Of a stretch of 64,000 nucleotides of DNA, positions 1 to 53,723 are shown one piece after another. Source of the stretch: Candidatus Saccharimonadota bacterium. Its GTDB lineage: Bacteria > Patescibacteriota > Saccharimonadia > Saccharimonadales > Saccharimonadaceae. Under the pieces are notes generated by a model. It ran no database searches, was not told the DNA's origin, and saw nothing but the letters and a program-made list of their open reading frames with translations. The translations under genes were made by a program, and so were the position numbers. How positions within the stretch are numbered: the first letter of the stretch is position 1; each line of letters starts with the position of its first letter. The stretch covers positions 500,671 to 564,670 of the forward strand of contig JAUCSD010000001.1 in assembly GCA_030445245.1 (NCBI GenBank), written 5' to 3'.

Positions 1-96
1 AGAATATGTTTCGTGAATTAGTAAATATCAGAGAACTCCTGATAAATCACTTGCTACGACTATCACACTCCTGCCAAGTACTTCAGCGGCACTCGG

Positions 97-594
97 CTAA
101 AAAAGAAAACCAAGCACTACAAAAATAACGATTGCAAGTGAGATGAATACCGATACAATACTAGCGATTAATCTGCCATGTTCCAACTGACGTTTGATTA
201 CGTAAATAGGTAGGGCTATAAGATTAATGACTGCCACGATAAACGCAGGGGTTAAAAATTGAAACAAAGCAAACAAAGCTACAAACTCTGAGCCAGATTG
301 CCCATTTTTTGCGGTTTGAGTTGCCGTATTCATTGCTTGAAAATACAGACTCACACATGCAATCTGCAGAACAGCCAGAGCAATAAAAAAGGACAACCAT
401 ACTGCTGAAGGCTTCTTAACGAGTTCGCTACTATCGACAATGTTGAATTTAAGCGGTGGCACAGCCGGCTTTTCATCTTCTACGCTTTGTATGTCATTAA
501 GATTACTGAGTACAGGTTCTACTACAAGCGTTTTTTGTTCGAGATCAGGGGCTGTTTCCTGATCGTCTAGGGTTTTTTTCTCATCCATTACCAT
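97..594 (-). CDS. hypothetical membrane protein (acidic N-terminus, 3-4 TM helices)
   Basis: 165-aa ORF with hydrophobic spans (WLSFFIALAVLQIACVSLYF, FVALFALFQFLTPAFIVAVINLIALPIYVI, IASIVSVFISLAIVIFVVLGFLF). No family recognised. Confidence 0.5.
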   Translation of the reverse strand: MVMDEKKTLDDQETAPDLEQKTLVVEPVLSNLNDIQSVEDEKPAVPPLKFNIVDSSELVKKPSAVWLSFFIALAVLQIACVSLYFQAMNTATQTAKNGQSGSEFVALFALFQFLTPAFIVAVINLIALPIYVIKRQLEHGRLIASIVSVFISLAIVIFVVLGFLF

Positions 595-667
595 TATGAT
601 AGCATGAGAAACCCCATCCTCATCAGGGATACATTACCTATTGTTAATGCGGTATACAAACAGACCA

Positions 668-1744
668 CTAAAGATCATCTTTTTGTGGTCTATCGACAAG
701 CAGTGGTTCGACTACAGACGCATTGCCCGCAATCTTAATAACGTCCTTGTCTATCTTGCCGAGTTCTTTATGTGCTGAATTGTAGTGATTAACCGTTGCA
801 CCGAGGCTGCTGCCGAGTTTTTGCATGAACTCTTCGAACTTGCCAATGTGCATACCGAGTTGACCGACACGCACTTGGATATCTTTAGCCTGCACTTCTA
901 TCTGAAGGCTACGGAGACCTTGAAGCACCGTCTGGAGGTACGCCATGAAACTGGTTGGACTCACAATAATGACGTGCTTATCGCGAAAGGCGTATTCGAT
1001 TAGGTCACGCGAGCTCCCACCTGTCCCAACGTTATTGATAAGCAAGTCGTAGTAGAGTGATTCACTCGGAATGAACATGAAGGCAAAGTCCATTGTCTTT
1101 TCGTTTGGTCGGATATATTTGCTCGTCTCGTCGATACGACCCTTGAGGTCCATTTTTACTTTGAGCATCAGACGGTCACGTTCGGTTTTGTCCGTCGCTT
1201 CGATCATACGGTTATAGTTTTCGAGACTGAACTTGCTGTCCACCGGAAGCACCTGACCTTTTTCAAGAAAAATCGCTGCATCCACAATTTCGCCGTCTTT
1301 GAATTTATATTGCATTTGAAACTGGCCTGGAGGTAAAACATTACCAAGTACCGATTCGAGATAGTACTCGCCAAAGACACCACGCTGTTTTGGGTTCTGT
1401 AAGACGTTCTGAAGCGTCTTAAGCTCATCAGCCACATCAACAACCCGACGGTTGGTTTCATCGAGCTTAGCCAGGCGCTGTGTCACGTCGGCAACAAGCT
1501 TCGCACTTTGGCCGAGCTGTCGCTGCATTGATGTTTGCATGGCCATGTTGCCTCGATCGAGCTTATCGCCCATATTCTGTTGAAGCAAAGCAACACTCCG
1601 TGCCAGTTCCGTAACATCAGACTTCATCAGATCAACATTACCACTGCTCTTAAGATCACGCAGCCTTTGATTAAGCACAAAAATAACAAGGATAAATCCC
1701 ACGACAATAACAGCAAGGACGATAAAAAAAGTTGTTTGTTCCAT
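668..1744 (-). CDS. rmuC: DNA recombination protein RmuC
   Basis: 358-aa ORF with an N-terminal TM helix and a long coiled-coil. C-terminal blocks VDAAIFL, VDSKFSLENY, FMFIPSESLYYDL and IIVSPTSFMAYLQTV are typical of the RmuC family (from memory). Confidence 0.85.
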   Translation of the reverse strand: MEQTTFFIVLAVIVVGFILVIFVLNQRLRDLKSSGNVDLMKSDVTELARSVALLQQNMGDKLDRGNMAMQTSMQRQLGQSAKLVADVTQRLAKLDETNRRVVDVADELKTLQNVLQNPKQRGVFGEYYLESVLGNVLPPGQFQMQYKFKDGEIVDAAIFLEKGQVLPVDSKFSLENYNRMIEATDKTERDRLMLKVKMDLKGRIDETSKYIRPNEKTMDFAFMFIPSESLYYDLLINNVGTGGSSRDLIEYAFRDKHVIIVSPTSFMAYLQTVLQGLRSLQIEVQAKDIQVRVGQLGMHIGKFEEFMQKLGSSLGATVNHYNSAHKELGKIDKDVIKIAGNASVVEPLLVDRPQKDDL

Positions 1745-1762
1745 TACCTCAGTATATCAGTA

Positions 1763-2248
1763 CTAGGCGGTAAGGATAAGCCGCATAGCGACAATAAGTA
1801 CAAGGAGCAGAATAACCACAAGCCAGAACAAGCGAAGACGAGTCACCCAGGTAAAAACAAGGTAACCAACCAGGTACATTCCCGCAAGGCTTAGGCCAAC
1901 AATATACCAAGGCTGTTCACTAACAACACCGATAAGTCCCCACAGGCTAACGACCGTTGCGATGACCACAAGCAATGGTCGGAATACTTGGATCTTCACG
2001 AGGATAAAGAGTCCGATAGCGCCTGCGATAAGCGTGGCGATTACTTCACCGTATTGTGCAGCGACAGCACAGGTGCTCACTTGTTTCGCAGAACAGAGCA
2101 GTGACTTGAGTACATACGTCTCAAGAACATACGTAAGTCCCCATACGATTAGGCCAGCCGCGACACCAAATGCGGCTACCTGAATTAGTTGTTTTCTACT
2201 CATAGGTATATAGACGGTCTGCGTCTCGGTTTGATTCGTTTCACTCAT
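1763..2248 (-). CDS. hypothetical integral membrane protein (about 4 TM)
   Basis: 161-aa ORF with four long hydrophobic helices. Same strand as rmuC, 18-nt gap. Confidence 0.5.
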   Translation of the reverse strand: MSETNQTETQTVYIPMSRKQLIQVAAFGVAAGLIVWGLTYVLETYVLKSLLCSAKQVSTCAVAAQYGEVIATLIAGAIGLFILVKIQVFRPLLVVIATVVSLWGLIGVVSEQPWYIVGLSLAGMYLVGYLVFTWVTRLRLFWLVVILLLVLIVAMRLILTA

Positions 2249-2278: not shown

Positions 2279-2791
2279 TTATTGTAGGCTATTTTGGTGC
2301 TTTTGGCGAGTAGGTTTCGTAAATATCTTTTCATCCCGTTGCAAGTACCATAATGCGCCGACACTCGCGACAAGAATTCCGCCGATAACATCAAGTGGCG
2401 TATGAACAAGCGCAAGTACCCTGCCAACACAGACAGCAACTGTGAGGATGGCAAGAGTAATACTAATCCACTTATGTCTCGTTTCAAACCAGACGGCGAG
2501 TGTAAGAAAGGCGGCAAAGAGAGCATGATCCGATGGGAAGCCAGGATTATTTAAGTATGATGCACCAGCAGCAACGCCTAAGATCTCAAACGGACGTTCA
2601 GTGGCCGGTTGATAGACAGCGCCAAGCAACTTGGCAAGAAGGTAGGCGGTAAGGCCTGCCATAAGAATTCGAGCATAGGCTTCAAACCGGGCGCCCTTAG
2701 GGATTAAAAATAATAGAGCATACCCAGCAAGCACAATAATTGGCAGAACTGCGCCATCAGCAACAAGCTTAATCAGAGTCTGAATTGTCAT
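2279..2791 (-). CDS. PAP2-family phosphatase (membrane-bound)
   Basis: 170-aa ORF with the three PAP2 motifs in order: ...ATERPF, FPSDHA (PSGH-like) and GRVLALVHTPLDV (SRx5Hx3D-like). Multi-TM. The overlapping 85-aa ORF at 2269..2526 is taken as a shadow. Confidence 0.7.
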   Translation of the reverse strand: MTIQTLIKLVADGAVLPIIVLAGYALLFLIPKGARFEAYARILMAGLTAYLLAKLLGAVYQPATERPFEILGVAAGASYLNNPGFPSDHALFAAFLTLAVWFETRHKWISITLAILTVAVCVGRVLALVHTPLDVIGGILVASVGALWYLQRDEKIFTKPTRQKHQNSLQ

Positions 2792-2824
2792 AAACTTAGT
2801 ATACTACTTTGAAGCGTTGAGAAG

Positions 2825-3193
2825 CTAGTTCAATCGACTACTTCGAACGGCAACATATCGATCAATCCGATTAGAAGACCAGCCACGTTGACGAAGCTCA
2901 CCTTTTAACTTACCGAATAATGCCAATCGAAACGCTCGAATATTGCGAAAGCCTCGCTTATGCGCGATTTCCTCAAGCGTTAGGTGCTTATGAAGGCTCT
3001 TAAATGTATCAGAATCCATACCGAGAATTTCAGCGCGCAGGTCACCTTTCCTGTCGTGATGTTGTAGCAGACGATCGAATTGCGACTCAGGACGATGCTT
3101 ACTACCTGGTAGTCTCCTGCTGATGCCCGGCACCGCCGCGGCAACTGCAGTCACAAGTAGAAGTGACGTCAGCGTACTGGTTGATATTCTCAT
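2825..3193 (-). CDS. small basic secreted or anchored protein, unknown function
   Basis: 122-aa ORF with a signal-peptide-like N-terminus (MRISTSTLTSLLLVTAVAAAVPG). Confidence 0.45.
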   Translation of the reverse strand: MRISTSTLTSLLLVTAVAAAVPGISRRLPGSKHRPESQFDRLLQHHDRKGDLRAEILGMDSDTFKSLHKHLTLEEIAHKRGFRNIRAFRLALFGKLKGELRQRGWSSNRIDRYVAVRSSRLN

Positions 3194-36416: not shown

Positions 36417-36576
36417 TACAACACTCTACTACGTACATTGAGTATAAGAAGATAGTGGATATATGTTTATATATTAGATCATATATTGATATTATTAGAT
36501 AAATGTGTTATAAGTAATACTATAAGTTAAAGTTTGCCTCTCTGGCAAATATATTTAGGAAGAAGTGTTAATTAGT

Positions 36577-38883
36577 ATGGGCATTCTCAAACGTGCAAAC
36601 AAGCAAGGTCCGAAGCGTCAATGGGGCGCTGAACGGCGAATCAAGCCGCTTCCCATTGTTCACGACAAACCAACAACTCGAAAAATTATGCTTAGTCGCT
36701 TAGCCGTTGTGGCTACTGTCGCGATGTGGGCTGTATACTTCATCTACACCATTCTTCGTCAATTCTTTGATGGTCCGCAGACATTCCAATTTACAATGCA
36801 AGCAATCGGCTATTTATTAGTCGTAACTCTTCTCACGTTTTCAGCACTAATGTACTTACTAGCTCGTCAAGGCGCATTGCAACGATTTAGTCAGCACATA
36901 CGAGTACCTCGTGCGGAGCTAGACCGCCACTTCTCTCAAACACAAGAATCTGCTATTACAATGCTTATTCCAAGCTATGCTGAAGAGCCAGGTGTTATCC
37001 GCAAAACACTACTATCCGCTGCACTTCAGGAGTATCCGAGCAAACGCGTCATACTTTTAGTAGACGATAACCCCGTACAGAAGAACCAAAAAGATACTGA
37101 GCGACTTGAGATTACCCGTCGTATAAGTAACGACATTATGGAACTTTTATGTGAACCACGTGAGCGATTTAGCTCAGCACGTTCTCTCTTTGAACAAAAC
37201 TATATATTCATCAAACAGGTACAGCCTGAGGTCACAAAGCAACTTGCTAGTGAGTATATTTGGGCATCAGAATGGTTACATGAACTGGCTAATAAGGAAG
37301 TGATCGAAGATCACGTAGATATTTTCTTTGCCAATCATGTACTGCGCGACTTAGCGAACGAGTTGAAACTTACTGGTGATGCATTAGCCGCCTCAGCTCT
37401 TGAAGGTGCAACGATACCTCAAGAACGTATCTCTCAACTTTATCGTCGCCTTCAGTGGACCTTTGATGCAGAGCTCGGTGTCTTTGAGCGCAAGAAGTAC
37501 GCTTCACTCTCTAAAGAGGCTAACAAAGCGATGAACTTAAACAGTTACATCGGGCTGATGGGCGGTACTTACCGGTCCATGCCTACTCCTGACGGTCCTG
37601 TTCTAGCGCCAGTAAAACGAGCTCAAGAGGGTGATATTGTCATTCCTGATACAGAGTTTTTGCTTACTCTTGACGCCGATTCAATCTTGCTACGCGACTA
37701 CTGCTTGCGTTTAGTCTATTTCCTGCAGCAACCTGGTAATGAGCGCATCGCCGTCACGCAAACACCATATAGCTCATTCCGTGGTGCAGCAAGTCGTATT
37801 GAACGCCTCGCTGGTGCAACGACAGATATTCAGCACATTTTACACCAAGGCATGAGTCATTATGGTGCAACATTCTGGGTAGGTGCTAACGCAGTAATCC
37901 GTAAAAAGGCTATCGAAGATATTGTCGAAACTGAATGGGCTGGTGGATTTGAGATCAAGCGTTATGTCCAGGACCGTACAGTTATCGAGGATACCGAGTC
38001 GAGTGTTGACTTAGGACTCCACGGCTGGGGACTTGTGAACTATCCGGAACGTCTTAGTTATAGTGCAACTCCACCAGACTTTGGATCATTGATCGTACAG
38101 CGTCGACGCTGGGCAAACGGTGGTCTTTTGATCCTGCCGAAGCTTTGGGCAACCATTCGTGCTCGTAAGAGTAAAAATGAAGTCGTCAGCAAAGCTGAGA
38201 TCATGCTACGTATGAACTATATGGCCTCAATTGCTTGGGCAAGTTTCGGATTAATCTTCCTCCTTGCCTTTCCATACGATGGCCGTCTATTGAGTCCATT
38301 CGTAGTACTCGCCGCGTTACCTTATTTCCTTGCGATGGCGAGTGACTTAAAATACTGTGGTTATAAGCGTACCGATGTCTTCCGTATCTATGGCTTTAAC
38401 CTGATCTTGCTGCCAGTACAGCTAGCCGGCGTACTCAAGTCGATTCAACAAGCGTTGAGCGGCAAGAAGATTCCGTTTGCACGTACGCCAAAAGTAAAGA
38501 ACCGTACCGTTTCGCCAATGCTCTATGTTGTAGCACCTCTCGCTGTCGTTGCCTTCTCGATCGTTACATTCTATCGTGACTTTACCGCCCAAAACTGGGG
38601 CAACGCTTCATTTGCTGCGTTTAATGCCATCGTGGCTATGTGGGCAATCCTTGCCTATATCGGTATCGGCAATACGCTAAAAGACATCTGGGTCGGGTTA
38701 ACCGACTGGATGTATGTTGATATAAAGTCAAAGCAAACAAAGACAGCTGTTCAAACCGATGAACCTGCTATTGATTGGCGTGCTGTTCTCTATCACGGCC
38801 ACGCTCAGGAATCCGTACCACTAGCAGCACAAGCTAGTGAGCAAGTCGTAACGACAGGCAAAAAAGAAGGGATACTCGTATGA
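36577..38883 (+). CDS. processive family-2 glycosyltransferase (cellulose/chitin/hyaluronan-synthase-like)
   Basis: Start set at ATG 36577 (the track uses GTG 36565). Motifs LLVDDNP, TLDADS, VIEDTESS and QRRRWANGG (QxxRW). Two N-terminal and about five C-terminal TM helices. Confidence 0.8.
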   Translation: MGILKRANKQGPKRQWGAERRIKPLPIVHDKPTTRKIMLSRLAVVATVAMWAVYFIYTILRQFFDGPQTFQFTMQAIGYLLVVTLLTFSALMYLLARQGALQRFSQHIRVPRAELDRHFSQTQESAITMLIPSYAEEPGVIRKTLLSAALQEYPSKRVILLVDDNPVQKNQKDTERLEITRRISNDIMELLCEPRERFSSARSLFEQNYIFIKQVQPEVTKQLASEYIWASEWLHELANKEVIEDHVDIFFANHVLRDLANELKLTGDALAASALEGATIPQERISQLYRRLQWTFDAELGVFERKKYASLSKEANKAMNLNSYIGLMGGTYRSMPTPDGPVLAPVKRAQEGDIVIPDTEFLLTLDADSILLRDYCLRLVYFLQQPGNERIAVTQTPYSSFRGAASRIERLAGATTDIQHILHQGMSHYGATFWVGANAVIRKKAIEDIVETEWAGGFEIKRYVQDRTVIEDTESSVDLGLHGWGLVNYPERLSYSATPPDFGSLIVQRRRWANGGLLILPKLWATIRARKSKNEVVSKAEIMLRMNYMASIAWASFGLIFLLAFPYDGRLLSPFVVLAALPYFLAMASDLKYCGYKRTDVFRIYGFNLILLPVQLAGVLKSIQQALSGKKIPFARTPKVKNRTVSPMLYVVAPLAVVAFSIVTFYRDFTAQNWGNASFAAFNAIVAMWAILAYIGIGNTLKDIWVGLTDWMYVDIKSKQTKTAVQTDEPAIDWRAVLYHGHAQESVPLAAQASEQVVTTGKKEGILV

Positions 38884-40424
38884 TTCAGGAAAAAACTCGT
38901 CGTCTATCGCCGTGGCGCGTCATGCTTGCAGTCTTCATCGTAGTCACAGCATGTGTCGGTAGCTTCTACGGCTTCCAGTGGTGGAAATCGGAGCAATCAC
39001 AGGCTTCACACAAACCATGGTTCGCCAGTTACGTAGACGTTACCTCAACACCGACATTCGCCTTCGAACAACTGAGCAAGGGTGATCACAAAGATGTCAT
39101 GCTCTCGTTTATCGTTAGCTCTACCTCAAAGGACTGTGTTCCTTCATGGGGCGGCAGCTTTACACTCGATCGCGCCGGCGACTCACTCGATCTTGATCGT
39201 CGTATCGCCCGCCTGAAACAGCAAGGTGGTAAGATAGCTATTAGTTTCGGTGGTCTCAAGAATAAAGAGTTAGCAAACTCGTGTAATGATGTTACGTCAC
39301 TAAAATCCGCCTACAAGGCTGTTATTGACCGCTACGACCTTGACACTATCGATCTCGATATTGAACAGGGTAATCTGACCGATACCGCTGCAAGCGAACG
39401 TCGTGCAGTCGCTCTCGCTGAATTACAGGCTGAACGACGTACGGCTGGTAAGAGTTTGGCTGTCTGGCTCACGCTACCTGTCTCACCTACTGGGTTAACC
39501 GAAGCTGGAACCAATATTGTCTCGCAAATGCTTGCGAAGAAAGTTGACATCGCTGGCGTGAATGTGATGACGATGGACTACGGACAAAGCCTTAACGGTC
39601 TTAGTATGATCGAAGCGGCTAAAAAAGCATTGACTGCGACACATCATCAGCTTGGCGTCGTGTACCAACGTGTTGGCATATATCTTAACGATGCTACCTT
39701 GTGGTCGAAGATTGGTGCCACGCCAATGATTGGTCAAAATGACTTTGATAATGAAGTTTTCATGCTAGACGATGCTGTTCAATTGAACAAGTTCGCTCGT
39801 GAAAAAGGCATGGCTCGTATGTCCATGTGGTCTGCAAACCGTGATATTACCTGCGGTAGTAACTACACGACTACCAAAGTTGTATCTGACTCATGTAGCG
39901 GCGTTAAAGAAGATGCTGGTGCATTTGCAAATGCCCTTGGCTCAGGCTTCAACGGTAGTTTTGCGCTCAGTGCTGGCGTCGTAACAAATGCCGACACTAA
40001 TTCAAAGCAAGTCAAGGATGATCCGGCAACGAGTCCGTATCCAATCTGGAGTGAGGATAGTACATATCTTCAAGGCACAAAGGTTGTCTGGCTTCACAAT
40101 GTATACGAATCTAAATGGTGGACTCAAGGTAATCAACCTGATAACCCTGTGCTTCAAGAATGGGAAACTCCCTGGAAGCTTGTCGGTCCAGTCCTACCTG
40201 GTGAAAAACCAGTTCAGCAAGCGACACTTCCTGAGGGTACCTACCCCGAATGGTCAGGCTCAACTGAATATGACACAGGACAACGAATACTCTTTCAGGG
40301 CGCACCATACCAAGCTAAATGGTGGAATAAGGGACAAAGTCCAGCCGCCGCATCTTCAAACCCAGACAGTTCTCCTTGGGTGCCACTTACCCAAGCACAG
40401 ATCAACGAGATCAAAGGCGAATAA
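38880..40424 (+). CDS. membrane-anchored GH18 chitinase-like protein with two C-terminal CBM5/12 domains
   Basis: ATG overlaps the GT2 stop (ATGA). N-terminal TM. GH18 DxxDxDxE motif (DTIDLDIE). Two chitin-binding repeats (YPIWSEDSTYLQGTKVVWLHNVYESKWWTQGNQP and YPEWSGSTEYDTGQRILFQGAPYQAKWWNKGQSP). Confidence 0.85.
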   Translation: MIQEKTRRLSPWRVMLAVFIVVTACVGSFYGFQWWKSEQSQASHKPWFASYVDVTSTPTFAFEQLSKGDHKDVMLSFIVSSTSKDCVPSWGGSFTLDRAGDSLDLDRRIARLKQQGGKIAISFGGLKNKELANSCNDVTSLKSAYKAVIDRYDLDTIDLDIEQGNLTDTAASERRAVALAELQAERRTAGKSLAVWLTLPVSPTGLTEAGTNIVSQMLAKKVDIAGVNVMTMDYGQSLNGLSMIEAAKKALTATHHQLGVVYQRVGIYLNDATLWSKIGATPMIGQNDFDNEVFMLDDAVQLNKFAREKGMARMSMWSANRDITCGSNYTTTKVVSDSCSGVKEDAGAFANALGSGFNGSFALSAGVVTNADTNSKQVKDDPATSPYPIWSEDSTYLQGTKVVWLHNVYESKWWTQGNQPDNPVLQEWETPWKLVGPVLPGEKPVQQATLPEGTYPEWSGSTEYDTGQRILFQGAPYQAKWWNKGQSPAAASSNPDSSPWVPLTQAQINEIKGE

Positions 40425-45303: not shown

Positions 45304-45879
45304 ATGTCAATTGAGATGGTATCGTCTAAAGAGCAGTCTTCTTCTTGGGAGATCCGGGGAACAGAATTACCTAACGGTTTCATGGTTCGTTTTATTGGTC
45401 ATGACGTTACTAAACCTGAACAGGTGTCGATATTACACAATAAGGTGGCTGAGATTTTAGCGCAGGCTGCAGTCGATCCTGATACCTGTTTTAGCGCGAA
45501 GCTTATTATTAGTGAGCTTGCGGCGAATGCAATTGAAAATGGCAAGCACCAATTATCCGAACTTGATGTAGTCGTATTGTATACACCTGAAGGTGAAGTC
45601 TCTGAGGTATATATTAGCGTGATCAATCCTGTCGATGAAGACGTACGTCTGGAATATCGTAAGAGAGAACGGACTGTTGATGAATCTGCTCAAGAAGAAA
45701 GCGGGAGGGGTCGTGATCTAACTGACGCGTTAACCAGTGGCAATTGGGGATGGGTCGTGACTGACGTGCGTGAAGAAAACAACGAGACACACGAGCAATT
45801 GTCTGTCGTGACCTTTGCTCGTCTTGAGGCAGCTGGGCATGAAGACATTCCTCAAGACGAACTCCCTCGCGCTAGTTAG
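45304..45879 (+). CDS. GHKL/HATPase-like protein (anti-sigma-factor-kinase-like), orphan
   Basis: IISELAANAIENG (N-box-like) and a later EESGRGRDL (G-box-like). No partner STAS or sigma gene nearby. Confidence 0.5.
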   Translation: MSIEMVSSKEQSSSWEIRGTELPNGFMVRFIGHDVTKPEQVSILHNKVAEILAQAAVDPDTCFSAKLIISELAANAIENGKHQLSELDVVVLYTPEGEVSEVYISVINPVDEDVRLEYRKRERTVDESAQEESGRGRDLTDALTSGNWGWVVTDVREENNETHEQLSVVTFARLEAAGHEDIPQDELPRAS

Positions 45880-47226: not shown

Positions 47227-47396
47227 TGCTGCCCCTTTAATATCTTGTATTTTAGCATGTTTATAAACAAGATGGTAACGACCTTATGGCTACCTCTTCT
47301 CATGCTAGTCTTTACAGTACTCTTGAAAGTTAGGCTATCTAGACCTACAATAATAAACCCACTAGTAAAGTCAGTCGTTACGGCAGGAAATGAGAT

Positions 47397-47657
47397 ATGA
47401 ACAAAGAAACTACACCCAAGATAGAGATAGACGACGAGTTTGCTGAAATTATAGAGCGCGAATTTAGCGCTAATACTAGTAAAGCGCTGGGCGGAACAGC
47501 CATGAGTCAGGTAGAACCGTTTGGTCATCAATTTATGGGTGACGCTAGCGAATCTCCAGCAAATCCAAAAGCAACGACTCCTGGTGGTCAGACGGTGACT
47601 CTCGACAACAACGGTCAGCCCGGCAAGGATGACCCAACCTCAAACGACGTGAGTTAA
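47397..47657 (+). CDS. candidate graspetide (omega-ester/amide RiPP) precursor peptide
   Basis: 86-aa ORF with an AGGAAA RBS 6-7 nt upstream. Acidic leader with EPFGHQFM. C-terminal core-like KATTPGGQTVTLDNNGQPGKDDPTSNDVS is rich in Thr/Ser, Asp and Lys. Ends 9 nt before the ATP-grasp gene. Confidence 0.5.
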   Translation: MNKETTPKIEIDDEFAEIIEREFSANTSKALGGTAMSQVEPFGHQFMGDASESPANPKATTPGGQTVTLDNNGQPGKDDPTSNDVS

Positions 47658-47666
47658 TAAAAACAA

Positions 47667-48608
47667 ATGAACATCGCTATCATCTCCGCTCCAGACGATG
47701 CACACATACCATTTGTCACCAATCATTTTCCACCCTCTGTGGAGTGTATTATCGTTGATCCATTCGGTGCAATTGGCGAAAAAGATATCACCTATAATTT
47801 CAGTAAAAACAAGCTAAGCGTGATCTATGGGGATAAATCGCTCGATGATATTGATAGCGTGTGGCTTCGTAAACCAACTCGCACGAATGTTTCACGCCTG
47901 AATATTCCGACACAATATTATGACTATACCGAAAGTACGCTACGGCGCCACTTGTCGCCTATATATCACCACTGGAAAGATGCGTTTTGGGTGTCTGCCC
48001 ACGAAGCCATATCGCATGCGGATCAAAAGCCGCATCAGCTCGTAGCAGCTGCAGCTATTGGTTTTCGTGTTCCTGAAACGCTCACGACAGGCAATAAGGA
48101 ACGGGTTCGGCGCTTCATAGAAAAGCACGGCAGATGTGTTGTTAAGTCCCAGGCAGATAAATTTCCTCAAGGTAAAATGATAATGACGACCGTTATCTCA
48201 GAAAGTGATACTTTATCATACGACGGCCTGGCTATCGATCCGATGATTTTCCAGCAGCTAATAGAGCCGGCTTATGAGCTGCGCGTGACCGTTGTTGGTA
48301 ATGAAGTATTCGGTGCAAAAATAAAGGCAGCCGATAATGGCCCATTTCGTGACTGGCGTTATGGACATATTGACGATTCATTCCACGCCGAGCCTGAATC
48401 TTTAAGCAAAGAACTAAAAGAGAAATGCATCAGACTCACCCGCTGGTTTGGGCTCAATTTTGGCGCAATTGATCTTATAGTCGACAAAGAAGGACAAGTA
48501 TGGTTTTTGGAGATTAACCCAAATGGACAATGGGCTTTTATTGAAGAATACACGAATCAACCAATTGGTAAAGCTATAGCCGAACTCCTCCAAAGACAAG
48601 GAAGCTGA
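47667..48608 (+). CDS. MvdC/MvdD-type ATP-grasp ligase (RiPP maturase-like)
   Basis: 313-aa ORF. IAIISAPDDAHIPFV, VWLRKP, KPHQL..A...GF.VPETL.T, YELRVTVVGNEVFGAKI, RDWR, GAIDLIVDKEGQVWFLEINPNGQWAFIE. Confidence 0.8.
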   Translation: MNIAIISAPDDAHIPFVTNHFPPSVECIIVDPFGAIGEKDITYNFSKNKLSVIYGDKSLDDIDSVWLRKPTRTNVSRLNIPTQYYDYTESTLRRHLSPIYHHWKDAFWVSAHEAISHADQKPHQLVAAAAIGFRVPETLTTGNKERVRRFIEKHGRCVVKSQADKFPQGKMIMTTVISESDTLSYDGLAIDPMIFQQLIEPAYELRVTVVGNEVFGAKIKAADNGPFRDWRYGHIDDSFHAEPESLSKELKEKCIRLTRWFGLNFGAIDLIVDKEGQVWFLEINPNGQWAFIEEYTNQPIGKAIAELLQRQGS

Positions 48609-48682: not shown

Positions 48683-49102
48683 ATGCAAACTAAACTCAAC
48701 CCGTACATCAGTTTTGAAGGCAATGCTCGCAACGCAATGGAGTTTTATAAAACAGTTTTTGGTGGAGAACTAACTCTTTCTACTTTTGGAGAAGCTGGAA
48801 TGACGGATCATGGCGTTAAACCTGATCAAATTATGCATGCTGCGCTTGTAGCTGATAATGGTATTACACTTATGGCTTCTGACTCGGCCACTGGAATGCG
48901 TGAATATATAGCCGGAACGAATATGAGCGTATCACTGAGTGGTGACAATGAAGAAGAGTTGACCGGCTATTACAACAAGCTCGTCGAGGGAGGTAAAGTA
49001 GAGCAACCCCTTACCAAAGCTCCATGGGGAGATACTTTTGGCATGTGTATCGATAAGTTCGGAGTTTTCTGGATGGTTAACATCGCCGGAACGAAGTCTT
49101 AG
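48683..49102 (+). CDS. VOC-family protein (PhnB-like)
   Basis: YISFEGNARNAMEFYKTVFGGEL ... PWGDTFGMCIDKFGVFWMVN is typical of PhnB-like proteins. Confidence 0.75.
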   Translation: MQTKLNPYISFEGNARNAMEFYKTVFGGELTLSTFGEAGMTDHGVKPDQIMHAALVADNGITLMASDSATGMREYIAGTNMSVSLSGDNEEELTGYYNKLVEGGKVEQPLTKAPWGDTFGMCIDKFGVFWMVNIAGTKS

Positions 49103-50536: not shown

Positions 50537-51100
50537 CTAATCGACTTTATCCGACCCACCGGCAGCCTTCTTGACAGTAATCTGCTGTGGCGCATAGCCT
50601 GGGGCACTCACCTCGACTTCAATATTTAGTATGTTACGTGGTGTTGCTAGTATGCTGTTTTTGTTGAACGGGAAGTGACCGCTACCGCTGCCATTATCAA
50701 AATGTACATCCGCGGCTGCGCCCGGTGCGATTGTCATACCTGTCAGCTTGGTATCGTACGATTCTTTTTGTCCTGTTTTTGTATCTGTAATCACGTAGTA
50801 AACTTCCAGATTACTCATTGTGGTGCTGGTCGTGTTACCGAGCGTCAACTGCAAATGATCATCCACTACATTACCTTTTGCATCGACGTTATTTTCGGTA
50901 ATTGCTTGTTTTATAACAATTCCAGGTGCCGTGCTGTTATTCACGATCTGATTAGGATATAGTCCCGGCGCAGTATACTGCGGATCAGTGGAGTTACTCG
51001 CAGCTTGATATTTTGGTGGAGCTGTCGTCAGCCTGATGCCGACTAGACCAATAATGACAGCCGCGACGATTCCGATAGCTATTAGTAATTTCTTGTTCAT
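50537..51100 (-). CDS. membrane-anchored extracytoplasmic protein (last gene of the ABC-2 operon)
   Basis: 187-aa ORF with an N-terminal TM, 3 nt after the upstream permease gene. Confidence 0.5.
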   Translation of the reverse strand: MNKKLLIAIGIVAAVIIGLVGIRLTTAPPKYQAASNSTDPQYTAPGLYPNQIVNNSTAPGIVIKQAITENNVDAKGNVVDDHLQLTLGNTTSTTMSNLEVYYVITDTKTGQKESYDTKLTGMTIAPGAAADVHFDNGSGSGHFPFNKNSILATPRNILNIEVEVSAPGYAPQQITVKKAAGGSDKVD

Positions 51101-51103
51101 ATA

Positions 51104-52069
51104 TTATCTCCAGATCATTTTATTACGATGTACTTCCAGTAACAACACGGCTGTTACGACAACCGCTACGGTAGTAATAACAACAAAATTCTGCCACTTG
51201 GCATTCCAAACTTCACCCAGTGACTTGCCGTCGAATTCCTGTTTGACACCCAGTAGTGCAAATGATGCCCGCTCGTAATGTTTGGTCGGACTGGCCTCTT
51301 CGGTACCGTTACGGATTATTTCATATTGCGCGAAATTAGCCAGAACCATTTTTTCTGATCCTTTGGGCAGATTCAGGCTGGCGAAAAATCCGCCTGGGAC
51401 CTGGTTGTCGACATCCATCGTATCCCCGATCTGCGGAATCACTAAGACAAAGACAATCCATAGCGCCAGACTAACAACGAGTGCGTTAGCTGGTACGCGC
51501 AAATGAATCGTCAATAGCGCCGAAAGACTATAAAAAATTAGCAGATAGACGAGTGATGATACCGCCGTTAGTAGCAGTTTAACCAGTTCCAGACCGTTTA
51601 GTGTTAGCCCTGCGATTATCCAAATGGATAGAACTGACATAATGACAAAGCTAGCAATGAGCACTCCCAATATCAACGTACTTCCCAGTAATTTGCCTAC
51701 GATAAATTGCACCTTCGTAATTTGCCGCGTTAGCATCAATGGCAGTGTTTGGTTTGCTCGCTCGCGAGCAATACTGGTATAACCCAGAATGATCGCCAGT
51801 ACGGCTCCGATGATTTCAAAATACTCGACGCTGTTTTGCAACAAACGGAGCGGCGCAAAACTCGGTGCCACTAGTTTGCTAATCTGTCCTGACGCCTTGA
51901 TTTGATCGAGCGCGGCATTATACTGTGCAATATCAACTCCAATATGTTGCGTCGCTGTCACGATAGAAACAATTACTAATATGCCAAGGCACGTGATTAG
52001 TAGAGCGACCATTTTATCGCGCCACGCGTCACGGAATTCTTTATTGGCGACAACCCAGACAAGACTCAT
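51104..52069 (-). CDS. ABC-2 type transporter permease
   Basis: 321-aa ORF with 6 TM. Overlaps the upstream permease stop. Confidence 0.65.
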   Translation of the reverse strand: MSLVWVVANKEFRDAWRDKMVALLITCLGILVIVSIVTATQHIGVDIAQYNAALDQIKASGQISKLVAPSFAPLRLLQNSVEYFEIIGAVLAIILGYTSIARERANQTLPLMLTRQITKVQFIVGKLLGSTLILGVLIASFVIMSVLSIWIIAGLTLNGLELVKLLLTAVSSLVYLLIFYSLSALLTIHLRVPANALVVSLALWIVFVLVIPQIGDTMDVDNQVPGGFFASLNLPKGSEKMVLANFAQYEIIRNGTEEASPTKHYERASFALLGVKQEFDGKSLGEVWNAKWQNFVVITTVAVVVTAVLLLEVHRNKMIWR

Positions 52070-52974
52070 GATGCGATCCTTTCAGATGGCTGGTAACGCC
52101 CTACAGCCCACCAAACTCCCACCCAGGCCAGAATGAATGCTCCCCCAACCGATAGATACGGCACCACACCCAGTGGAGATTTCTGGAATTCGAATAGCGA
52201 CAGCGAAATTTGCTTATACTGTTCTGCGAATGAAAACGGCCCAATAATTGAACTGAGTGCGGCAAAAATCCCCGCAGGTTGCGTATCCGTCGCAATCGTC
52301 ACAGGGTTAAGTAGGGCGACCGGTTCGACGCCTGAAATAACTTGCGGTACGACAAATCCAATTATGATCCAAAATGCCATAGGCAGCACCAGCGCCATTG
52401 TATGACTCTTGGCTAGCAGGCCGCTGATCAGCCCCAGTAATCCGAAAATAGTCAGATATATCCATGATACGGCGTAAAAGATGGCTAGCTCCACGATCTG
52501 ATTACTCGTCAGACTTAATTCCGGTAGCAGTGTAGCTAATAGCAATGAAACGATGAATGCAAATACTAGCATAATGGCAATCGCAATTGTAACCGCAAAC
52601 ACTTTACCGATCATATATGTCCTCTTGCTAACAGGCCGTGACAGTACCATTGTCAGCATAGCGCTAATCCGATCCCGAAGGGTAGCCGAATAGCCGATAA
52701 TTATTGCCAGTAGTGATCCGATCAAGAAAAAGTAAACTCCTAGATTCCGCTGCAATGACAAATGCGACACGTTAGCAAACGGGTTCGGCGCCATCGACAC
52801 GCCTGATTGCATTAGTGGGATACTCGCTGCGTAGACATGATTTGCAGTTGAACTCGTTGACCAGCCAATCAGTCCTGCAGATATTGTCAAAAACAAAAAA
52901 ACGGCTGCGATGACCAGAAACAATCGTTCTCGCATCATTAGCCGCAGTTCGGTTGTTATGAGTGTCAGCTTCAC
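52066..52974 (-). CDS. ABC-2 type transporter permease
   Basis: 302-aa ORF with 6 TM. Overlaps the ATPase stop. Confidence 0.65.
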   Translation of the reverse strand: MKLTLITTELRLMMRERLFLVIAAVFLFLTISAGLIGWSTSSTANHVYAASIPLMQSGVSMAPNPFANVSHLSLQRNLGVYFFLIGSLLAIIIGYSATLRDRISAMLTMVLSRPVSKRTYMIGKVFAVTIAIAIMLVFAFIVSLLLATLLPELSLTSNQIVELAIFYAVSWIYLTIFGLLGLISGLLAKSHTMALVLPMAFWIIIGFVVPQVISGVEPVALLNPVTIATDTQPAGIFAALSSIIGPFSFAEQYKQISLSLFEFQKSPLGVVPYLSVGGAFILAWVGVWWAVGRYQPSERIAS

Positions 52975-53723
52975 GTCGTGCGCTCTTTGCTTGGCGTGTC
53001 AACGCTAGTATAAATCGATTCGAGTGACTGTTCGGTCGGAAACCGCTCAAGCGTATTCGCCAAGGTATCGTTATAAATTAGCTTGCCCTGATTTAAGACA
53101 CCGATTGAGGTGCACGTTTTTGCCACTTCGCTCAGCAAGTGAGTATTCATAAAGATCGTTATATTTTGTTCTTTACTCAGGCGCAGAATGATATTTCGAA
53201 GCTGAATAATGCCTTCGGGATCCAGTCCGGACGTTGGTTCGTCCAGAAATAATACATTGGGATTATGTACAATCGCCTGCGCGATACCAACGCGTTGGCG
53301 CATCCCTTTTGAAAATTCGCCGACCTTTTGATGCAGGTGTGATGTAAATTCCAAGTACTCAAACACTTCCTCGATCCGCTTTTTCGGATGTTTCATACCC
53401 GATAATTTCGCAAGGTATTCGACATTCTCATAGGCAGTCATTGTGTCGTAAAAACGAACGCTTTCAGGTAAGTAGCCGAACGATCGTCGCGCCCGCAGTC
53501 CATCCCGTGTTACATCGTGTCCGCAAATTTTCGCACTTCCCGACGTTGGTTCCAGCAATGTTGTCAGAATATTGACTGTCGTCGTCTTGCCTGCGCCGTT
53601 ATGTCCCAGAAAACCAAAGACCTCTCCCTCATGGATTGTCAAATTCAGTGCATCAAGCACGGTATGGTCACCATATTTCTTCGTAAGTTCTGTCGTTTTT
53701 ATAATTACGCTACGTTGGGTCAT
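52971..53723 (-). CDS. ABC transporter ATP-binding protein
   Basis: Walker A GHNGAGKTT, signature FSKGMRQR, Walker B LFLDEPTSGLD. Confidence 0.9.
   Translation of the reverse strand: MTQRSVIIKTTELTKKYGDHTVLDALNLTIHEGEVFGFLGHNGAGKTTTVNILTTLLEPTSGSAKICGHDVTRDGLRARRSFGYLPESVRFYDTMTAYENVEYLAKLSGMKHPKKRIEEVFEYLEFTSHLHQKVGEFSKGMRQRVGIAQAIVHNPNVLFLDEPTSGLDPEGIIQLRNIILRLSKEQNITIFMNTHLLSEVAKTCTSIGVLNQGKLIYNDTLANTLERFPTEQSLESIYTSVDTPSKERTT

Follow-up and report, generated by a model that had tools for sequence, protein, structure and literature searches.

An 86-residue peptide gene and an ATP-grasp ligase gene form a probable graspetide cassette in a Saccharibacteria genome

We analyzed a 64,000-nucleotide (nt) stretch of DNA from a Candidatus Saccharimonadota bacterium (assembly GCA_030445245.1, contig JAUCSD010000001.1, positions 500,671 to 564,670 of the forward strand; hereafter the window), in which a short open reading frame (ORF) encoding 86 amino acids (aa) lies directly upstream of a gene for a 313-aa ATP-grasp ligase. 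A preliminary description of this DNA had proposed the pair as a candidate locus for a graspetide (omega-ester peptide). Both ORFs lie where it placed them, with 9 nt between the stop codon of the first and the ATG of the second, and the strings it quoted from the ligase (VWLRKP, ELRVTVVGNEVFGAKI, RDWR and VWFLEINPNGQWAFIE) and from the short protein (EPFGHQFM and KATTPGGQTVTLDNNGQPGKDDPTSNDVS) are all present. The two proteins are identical to entries of a Candidatus Saccharibacteria metagenome-assembled genome with a contig of 1.16 Mb, deposited as ‘hypothetical protein JWP06_617’ and ‘RimK protein’ (accessions in Table 1), names under which annotation-based mining would miss the locus. We consider it probable that the pair is a two-gene graspetide cassette, composed of a disordered precursor of a ribosomally made peptide with post-translational modifications (RiPP) and its ATP-grasp macrocyclase.

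Table 1 Features of the candidate graspetide locus, of its neighborhood in the window and of related loci.
Feature	Sequence	Position	Strand	Description
Precursor peptide gene, 86 aa	window	47397..47657	+	MDN5274716.1; acidic leader and Thr/Asp-rich core; ORF call
Graspetide-type ATP-grasp macrocyclase gene, 313 aa	window	47667..48608	+	MDN5274717.1; NCBIfam/Pfam, PDB phmmer, AlphaFold2/Foldseek
Predicted sigma-70-like promoter, TTGAAA-17 nt-TACAAT	window	47323..47351	+	about 46 nt 5′ of the precursor ATG; consensus scan, 10/12 matches
Shine–Dalgarno-like site of the precursor gene, AGGAAATGAG	window	47385..47394	+	3–12 nt 5′ of the ATG; read from sequence
Leader block 1, DEFAEIIEREF (aa 13–23)	window	47433..47465	+	motif [E/S]-F-x-x-I-[I/V]; conserved amphipathic helix
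Leader block 2, PFGHQFM (aa 41–47)	window	47517..47537	+	predicted ligase-recognition motif; PFFARFL counterpart
Predicted core, PKATTPGGQTVTLDNNGQPGKDDPTSNDVS (aa 57–86)	window	47565..47654	+	donors T60/T66/T68, acceptors D78/D79/D84
VOC/glyoxalase-family (PhnB-like) gene	window	48683..49102	+	75 nt after the ligase gene; own AGGAG
ABC-2 exporter operon	window	50537..53723	−	2–5 kb 3′ of the ligase gene, opposite strand
ABC-2 ATPase	window	52971..53723	−	in ABC-2 operon
ABC-2 permeases	window	52066..52974, 51104..52069	−	in ABC-2 operon
187-aa protein	window	50537..51100	−	weak WxL-interacting-protein domain; in ABC-2 operon
191-aa protein	window	45304..45879	+	1.5 kb 5′ of the pair; sub-threshold HATPase_c_2 match (PF13581)
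772-aa glycosyltransferase and 514-aa GH18 protein	window	36565..40424	+	polysaccharide synthase-like and hydrolase-like genes
PFG-leader ORF 5′ of WWE3-type ligase	L029	2759..2899		46 aa
PFG-leader ORF 5′ of WWE3-type ligase	L034	2682..2900		called longer, from an upstream start
PFG-leader ORF 5′ of WWE3-type ligase	L033	2793..2918		called within 41–46 aa
PFG-leader ORF 5′ of WWE3-type ligase	L040	2582..2719		called within 41–46 aa
Sister-subclade ORFs with conserved Cys	L015, L017, L024, L027, L028, L031, L037	about 2600..2980		G-[AG]-L-[AS]-C after the PFG leader
Tandem precursor-ligase pairs	L008	1322..3996		two pairs in series
Subgroup at 60–64% ligase identity	L004/L005	51..3654		pair preceded by response regulator, histidine kinase and 442–446-aa protein
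Subgroup at 60–64% ligase identity	L006; L094; L095	1..2670; 353..2148; 1..2158		pair preceded by histidine kinase and 442–446-aa protein
Ligase directly upstream of rpsF-ssb-rpsR	L007/L009	3001..5089		50% identical to the window ligase
PFG precursor of that ligase	L007/L009	2748..2969		

The 86-aa ORF is, on sequence evidence, a real gene, because its frame is under purifying selection (pairwise ratio of nonsynonymous to synonymous substitution, dN/dS, 0.09–0.34 against orthologs) and it is preceded by a Shine–Dalgarno-like site and a conserved promoter-like site. It had been credited with its own ribosome-binding site, and relatives indeed carry AGAAGGAG or GAAGTGAG at the equivalent place before their precursor ATGs. 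The promoter-like hexamers and their spacing are kept in the closest relative (L001), and a more distant one (L003) keeps TTGTAA and TACAAT though its intergenic DNA has otherwise diverged. We infer that this site acts as the promoter, and one bicistronic mRNA, probably starting from it, would carry precursor and ligase. The ligase gene has no Shine–Dalgarno site of its own, which together with the 9-nt gap suggests that its translation is coupled to that of the precursor; in orthologous pairs about 5–10 nt separate the two genes, or the genes share as many as 14 nt. An 84–88-aa ORF lies directly 5′ of each of the ligase orthologs at 83%, 71% and 60–64% identity, and their other neighbors differ completely. 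A search of relatives found the short ORF kept beside ligase homologs down to about 35% ligase identity.

Searches with the 86-aa precursor against Pfam, NCBIfam and PADLOC returned no match, which also disposed of a defense-system reading. A word-index search found one homolog, and HMMER, run exhaustively against 1.84 billion representatives, recovered three real clusters at 50% identity, so that the subfamily appears small. A fourth match (P0125, 1088 aa, with six ‘matches’) was spurious, being a low-complexity repeat protein matching through ‘FGHQ’. Modeled alone with AlphaFold2, the precursor is mostly disordered with one helix at residues 13–30, at a confidence too low to inform ring topology.

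By its sequence and predicted fold, the ligase is a graspetide-type macrocyclase rather than a RimK. In a profile search it did not group with RimK or glutathione synthetase: the NCBIfam maturase models gave E-values of 3.8 × 10−57 (TIGR04187), 1.5 × 10−46 (MvdC) and 2.5 × 10−44 (MvdD), compared with 1.9 × 10−16 for rimK_fam and 2 × 10−3 for the S6-glutamate ligase model PRK10446. Above-threshold Pfam matches were the generic RimK and YheCD ATP-grasp models only, with the MvdD pre-ATP-grasp model matching below threshold. A phmmer search of PDB sequences placed MdnC, AMdnB, CdnC, MdnB, PruB and PsnB as the top six (MdnC, E = 2.7 × 10−31; AMdnB, 3 × 10−31; CdnC, 4.6 × 10−31; PsnB, 4.5 × 10−12), compared with 6 × 10−4 for a RimK-like ligase. 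An AlphaFold2 model built from 29 homologs was confident (predicted local distance difference test score, pLDDT, 92.5; predicted template modeling score, pTM, 0.89), and its best 32 Foldseek matches were all graspetide macrocyclases, with template modeling (TM) scores of 0.75–0.84 except for the shorter chain 5ig8_B (TMq 0.63). RimK structures, at TM scores of about 0.7, ranked after all of the macrocyclases.

The catalytic residues point the same way. Across 29 homologs, which reach down to 39% identity, R68, R206, D229-W230-R231, K160, E282 and N284 do not vary, and R68, R206 and D229-W230-R231 align with the same residues of MdnC. Two arginines of PsnB (Arg72 and Arg213) and a D(F/W)R loop are reported to be conserved across graspetide enzymes and needed for activity (bioRxiv 10.1101/2021.03.09.434688); they would correspond to R68, R206 and D229-W230-R231 by way of the MdnC alignment. 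The ligase had been typed as MvdC/MvdD-like. The macrocyclase part of that typing is borne out by the HMM (hidden Markov model), PDB and Foldseek comparisons, but every score falls below the curated cutoff: 193.9 against 350 bits for TIGR04187, the best-scoring curated family, 159 against 425 for MvdC (TIGR04185) and 151.8 against 475 for MvdD (TIGR04184). The RimK models fall short as well (rimK_fam, 60.3 against 143.4 bits; PRK10446, 17.4 against 331 bits). The ligase is therefore not a strict member of the MvdC, MvdD or TIGR04187 families and belongs to a separate clade, whose ligases score 186–206 bits on TIGR04187 and reach the cutoff of no curated NCBIfam model.

To describe the precursor we used a subfamily alignment of ten sequences (A2), to which the conservation statements here refer. 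Its leader contains two conserved blocks. In the first, F15, I18, I19 and E22 are invariant, and this block is the sole confidently helical stretch of the precursor model. It recurs as EF-x-x-I-[IV] in 16 of 33 clade precursors, which makes the leader of the longer Saccharibacteria peptides look bipartite. In the second, PFGHQFM, F42, G43, Q45 and M47 are invariant and P41 and F46 nearly so. This block comes close to Phhx(1,2)h, the leader signature of graspetides in general (PMC8939145), and by analogy it is predicted to be the ligase recognition motif.

The predicted core, occupying the last 30 residues, contains conserved donor and acceptor residues. Its invariant positions are P57, T60, G63, G64, T66, D78, D79 and D84, and those close to invariance are A59, T68, G73, S82 and V85. 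Residues for both omega-ester and omega-amide rings had been noted in this segment; the Thr and Asp residues are conserved as that proposal would have it, but neither Lys of the 86-aa peptide is, which makes omega-amide (lactam) rings unlikely. Three conserved Thr donors and three conserved Asp acceptors suggest up to three omega-ester rings, and we predict from the sequence up to three macrolactones and no lactam. The length of the loop between donors and acceptors varies, being 5 residues shorter in L004. For fuscimiditide, a stem-loop graspetide, the enzyme accepts loops of altered length (PMC12291112), and the donor-loop-acceptor layout here resembles such graspetides, though leader/core boundary and ring connectivity are placed here by conservation and analogy.

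We next placed the pair among its relatives, using one genome per GTDB species, 80 loci and a neighbor-joining tree. Ligases from Saccharibacteria, WWE3 and Dojkabacteria form one clade, apart from another made up mostly of proteobacterial enzymes; at the loci of the latter that were inspected (L042, L044 and L045) the ligase adjoins classic omega-ester-type precursors with repeated TKT...E.DDD. The leader had been likened to the PFFARFL motif of microviridins. Within the Patescibacteria clade, P-[FY]-[GA]-x(1-3)-hydrophobic occurs in the ORF upstream of 34 of 43 ligases, compared with 62 of 2220 other small ORFs (2.8%) at the same loci (P = 1.6 × 10−41, Fisher test). The motif can be summarized as P-F-G-x-(D/E/Q)-(L/F)-(M/L), and the nine loci lacking a match are mostly near-variants (LFGHQFM, IFGDQMM, PVGFEFM), one regular-expression miss or cuts at contig ends. 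Clade precursors range from 41 to 125 aa. Sequence after the motif is unrelated between subclades, is rich in Thr/Ser and in most cases ends in an acidic tail; a conserved leader followed by variable Thr/Ser- and Asp/Glu-rich C-termini is the typical pattern of RiPP precursors. A metagenome scan with a single ligase yielded five loci, and no precursor ORF was found at the one Dojkabacteria locus examined (L039).

Several branches of this clade have features of their own. Upstream of WWE3-type ligases lie very short PFG-leader ORFs, called at 41–46 aa in three of the four loci tabulated, whose cores are T-rich and then D-rich (for example, MKSKRKPVKVVPFGAKYLKK...TNTGTGTSQPDADHD in L029). In a sister subclade of seven loci the PFG leader is followed by a conserved Cys, which possibly signals a different (thio)ester chemistry. 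One of these loci, from Actinoallomurus acaciae (L037; guanine plus cytosine (GC) content genuinely high at 0.71), nests among Saccharibacteria ligases, a placement in the tree that gives a hint of genes having been exchanged with the phylum of the hosts. L008 carries a tandem duplicate, and its two precursors have diverged in the middle and share an identical C-terminal segment, EPLPTFSPNNKGNQIADDGGTGPG. In the subgroup at 60–64% ligase identity, a histidine kinase and a 442–446-aa protein always precede the pair, and an OmpR-type response regulator is also visible in L004/L005, where the retrieved DNA extends far enough. The 445-aa protein has Asp-rich motifs (IYDHILDEEAD, GDDIHDWREDL) and no Pfam or PDB relative. 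In three of four contexts of this subgroup (all but L094) a convergent gene for a 621–667-aa DUF5907/pectate-lyase-like protein lies 3′ of the pair. At these loci the system may be regulated or tailored; none of the genes that accompany the pair there occurs in the 64-kb window.

By analogy with characterized graspetides, we infer the following course of leader binding, ester chemistry and processing. PFGHQFM would dock on the ligase and activate it, as the microviridin PFFARFL and the plesiocin leader Phe do, with the N-terminal leader helix (the EF-x-x-I-I block) as a possible second contact. Using ATP, the ligase would phosphorylate the side-chain carboxylates of D78, D79 and D84; R206 would guide the carboxylate, and the nucleotide would be contacted by the D229-W230-R231 loop. 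The hydroxyls of T60, T66 and T68 would then attack the acyl-phosphates to form up to three macrolactones, with 18 Da lost for each, and the rings would most likely be nested in a hairpin-like stem-loop around a variable N-G loop. Leader removal and export would depend on enzymes encoded elsewhere; genes for these steps are commonly unassigned in non-microviridin graspetides (bioRxiv 10.1101/2023.06.21.545981). The product may inhibit proteases, as microviridins, marinostatins and plesiocin do.

Comparison with known systems shows which of these features are shared. Microviridins (group 1; MdnA with MdnB/MdnC, or MvdC/MvdD) resemble the pair in enzyme fold and catalytic residues (TM 0.84 for MdnC) and in their logic, in which a P-F-initial leader motif precedes side-chain macrocyclization. 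Unlike them, the locus has one ligase rather than two, no GNAT or ABC transporter, no conserved Lys and no PFFARFL leader, and its core, as had been observed at the outset, is unrelated to TxKYPSDWEEY. Plesiocin (group 2; PsnA2/PsnB) is alike in its minimal set of a precursor and a single ligase, in the conserved mechanistic residues of PsnB, in forming esters only and in hairpin-like nested rings, which are predicted here. However, PsnB is the more distant enzyme, and the window precursor has a single core copy rather than repeated TTxxxxEE and Asp rather than Glu acceptors. The SAV_5884-type actinobacterial maturases of TIGR04187, which include the graspimiditide enzyme ThfB of fuscimiditide and PruB (PDB 9BOU), are the best-scoring curated family, with PruB among the top sequence and fold matches of the ligase, and fuscimiditide shares the N-terminal Thr/Ser donors, C-terminal Asp acceptors and stem-loop with a length-tolerant loop. 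In contrast to the SAV_5884/graspimiditide loci, no PIMT methyltransferase lies near the pair, the core motif differs and the ligase stays well under the family cutoff; the precursor does not match TIGR04186 (GRASP_targ), and the clade precursors have no NCBIfam match of any kind.

The nearest published systems are those in Candidate Phyla Radiation (CPR) bacteria. Makarova et al. predicted CPR graspetide loci in two branches (Branches 1 and 2) with the leader signature given above, found precursors not confidently identifiable for such loci, and list in their Branch 2 table a 316-aa ligase of WWE3 bacterium RAAC2_WWE3_1 with no precursor given (PMC8939145). That ligase is our L029, which shares the neighbor-joining clade of the window ligase at about 36% identity in our own tree, with this ligase as the Branch 2 member compared. 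Branch 2 and the window pair have in common hosts with ultrasmall genomes, predicted graspetide systems and a P-led hydrophobic leader signature. They differ in that PFG-leader ORFs were found here 5′ of the WWE3 316-aa ligase and of the Saccharibacteria ligases, and the short WWE3-type ORFs are likely the precursors left unassigned in 2022 for the 316-aa Branch 2 ligases. None of the Branch 2 accessory genes (cluster 23 protein, SPASM, UbiE methyltransferase, zincin peptidases) is among the genes scanned around the locus.

A 2026 RODEO update recognizes 43 graspetide groups (PMC13097080). Within the part of that source searched, none of the representatives of groups 25–43 (none is given for group 31) has a PFG leader or an ATTPGG...DD...D core. 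Group 27 (candidate phyla, synthetase and precursor only) was rejected as a home for the pair on the basis of its Ca. Angelobacter representative, which differs in leader and core, as was group 42 (Komeilibacteria), which differs likewise; both were compared from the same partial source. Saccharibacteria entries are absent from the portion of the supplementary text of PMC8939145 that was searched, and our accessions and motif strings do not occur in the partial supplementary texts of PMC8939145 and PMC13097080, an absence that is not proof. The literature library searched contains no paper pairing graspetides with Saccharibacteria.

Several observations weigh against reading the pair as a graspetide cassette with three ester rings. 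Every curated RiPP maturase HMM scores under its cutoff, as detailed above for TIGR04187, and the precursor fits no curated precursor model in NCBIfam. The third position of the PFG motif is Gly (or Ala), where the published signature wants a hydrophobic residue. In related loci the pair is not consistently accompanied by any protease, exporter or tailoring gene, and one relative (L007/L009) lies directly 5′ of rpsF, the gene of the RimK substrate, though with its own PFG precursor. Finally, the leader could be cleaved at the conserved G63-G64; T60 would then belong to the leader, and two Thr donors would be left.

This last point defines an alternative that keeps the graspetide pair and changes its product, and we regard it as unlikely though worth serious weight. 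Cleavage at a double-glycine-type G63-G64 site would release a 22-aa core, QTVTLDNNGQPGKDDPTSNDVS, with T66 and T68 as donors of two ester rings, and P57-x-A-T-T-P-G-G would lie outside the rings and serve for recognition by a protease or ligase. The invariance of G63 and G64 fits such a site, as does the lack of invariance at T61, and Makarova et al. take conserved GG-like doublets as predicted cleavage sites of graspetide precursors (PMC8939145). Against this, T60 is invariant, as a ring-forming donor would be, the three conserved Thr match the three Asp, and there is no C39 peptidase or PCAT transporter in the window neighborhood or in related loci. Canonical double-glycine leaders also have a hydrophobic −4/−7/−12 pattern, which PKATTPGG lacks.

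It is much less probable that the short protein serves the ligase as partner, chaperone or regulator, the true substrate being encoded elsewhere. Graspetide synthetases that depend on partner proteins do exist (PMC13097080), the helix predicted at residues 13–30 would suit such a role, and the pair follows a two-component system in the 60–64% identity subgroup. However, the C-terminal half is core-like, hypervariable across the clade and marked by invariant Thr and Asp within the subfamily; lengths of 41–125 aa, predicted disorder and an acidic C-terminus suit a substrate; and neither another candidate precursor nor another PFG ORF whose core would be plausible is present in the window.

We give very little credence to the reading of the ligase as a RimK-, GshB- or LysX-like enzyme with a housekeeping protein or metabolite as substrate and the short ORF as a chance neighbor. 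RimK, the S6 poly-glutamate ligase, does share the ATP-grasp superfamily, a similar size and the database name with the window ligase, its domain and YheCD are the only ones above threshold in Pfam, and one relative adjoins rpsF-ssb-rpsR. Yet the similarity to RimK is much weaker, with RimK-type models trailing the graspetide maturase models by 30 to 55 orders of magnitude and the PDB sequence and fold searches giving the same ordering, and RimK has no upstream gene for a leader-bearing peptide substrate. A motif-bearing short ORF co-occurs with the ligase across phyla, and its conserved residues are exactly of the donor and acceptor types. The relative beside rpsF likewise carries a PFG precursor; its position is probably a coincidence, and the RimK reading that it prompted was rejected on the HMM scores. 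That the cassette is a decaying, non-functional remnant is scarcely credible: the host genome is small and reduced and accessory genes are missing, but both ORFs are intact with dN/dS well below 1, the catalytic residues are all invariant, promoter and Shine–Dalgarno signals are conserved, and the cassette GC equals the window average (0.446).

The preliminary description had found no GNAT, protease or exporter adjacent to the pair, which is true of the immediate neighbors; the ABC-2 operon farther downstream, which may offer the peptide a route for export or immunity, was not found beside the pair in relatives. The VOC-family gene, with no terminator detected between it and the ligase gene, follows the pair in L001 and is gone in L003 and beyond. 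Both were rejected as conserved accessory genes because more distant relatives do not keep them. Upstream, two opposite-strand genes (HAD and NUDIX) separate the pair from the gene for the 191-aa protein, which relatives do not keep and which has a sub-threshold match to the anti-sigma-factor-like kinase family PF13581. Members of PF13581 accompany RODEO graspetide group 29 in 67% of biosynthetic gene clusters (PMC13097080). Farther away lies the gene for a family-2 glycosyltransferase that weakly matches chitin synthase, and directly after it comes one for a GH18 chitinase-like protein with CBM5/12 modules, a polysaccharide synthase and hydrolase combination that is unexpected for a reduced genome.

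Taken as a graspetide cassette, the locus is a previously unannotated pair of a known natural-product class, from a Patescibacteria clade partly seen before. It had been proposed as a minimal and possibly new graspetide class. The two-gene cassette is indeed minimal, but such cassettes are common in non-microviridin graspetides (bioRxiv 10.1101/2023.06.21.545981; PMC13097080), and a new class is not warranted, as CPR graspetide loci were already predicted in 2022 (PMC8939145); the pair is at most a new family or group, and possibly a new graspetide group. More tentatively, and with less than even confidence in the whole, one could read PFG peptides as Patescibacteria-wide unassigned graspetide precursors (Saccharibacteria, WWE3 and possibly Dojkabacteria) that include the ‘missing’ ones of Branch 2, with the ATTPGG-x-T-x-T...DD-x4-D subfamily as a new group whose leader is bipartite and whose tri-ester stem-loop topology is undescribed, and which episymbiotic Saccharibacteria might use against, or to signal, their actinobacterial hosts.

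The locus reveals no new kind of biochemistry, and neither its chemistry nor its occurrence in CPR bacteria would surprise specialists. It does offer a compact two-gene system (86 aa and 313 aa) that is directly testable in E. coli, and the PFG-type leader provides a simple handle for finding precursors beside the CPR ATP-grasp clade, including published loci with no precursor assigned. As Saccharibacteria and other CPR bacteria rely on bacterial hosts and their genomes are very small, a secondary-metabolite cassette that has been retained in one of them likely matters for this lifestyle.

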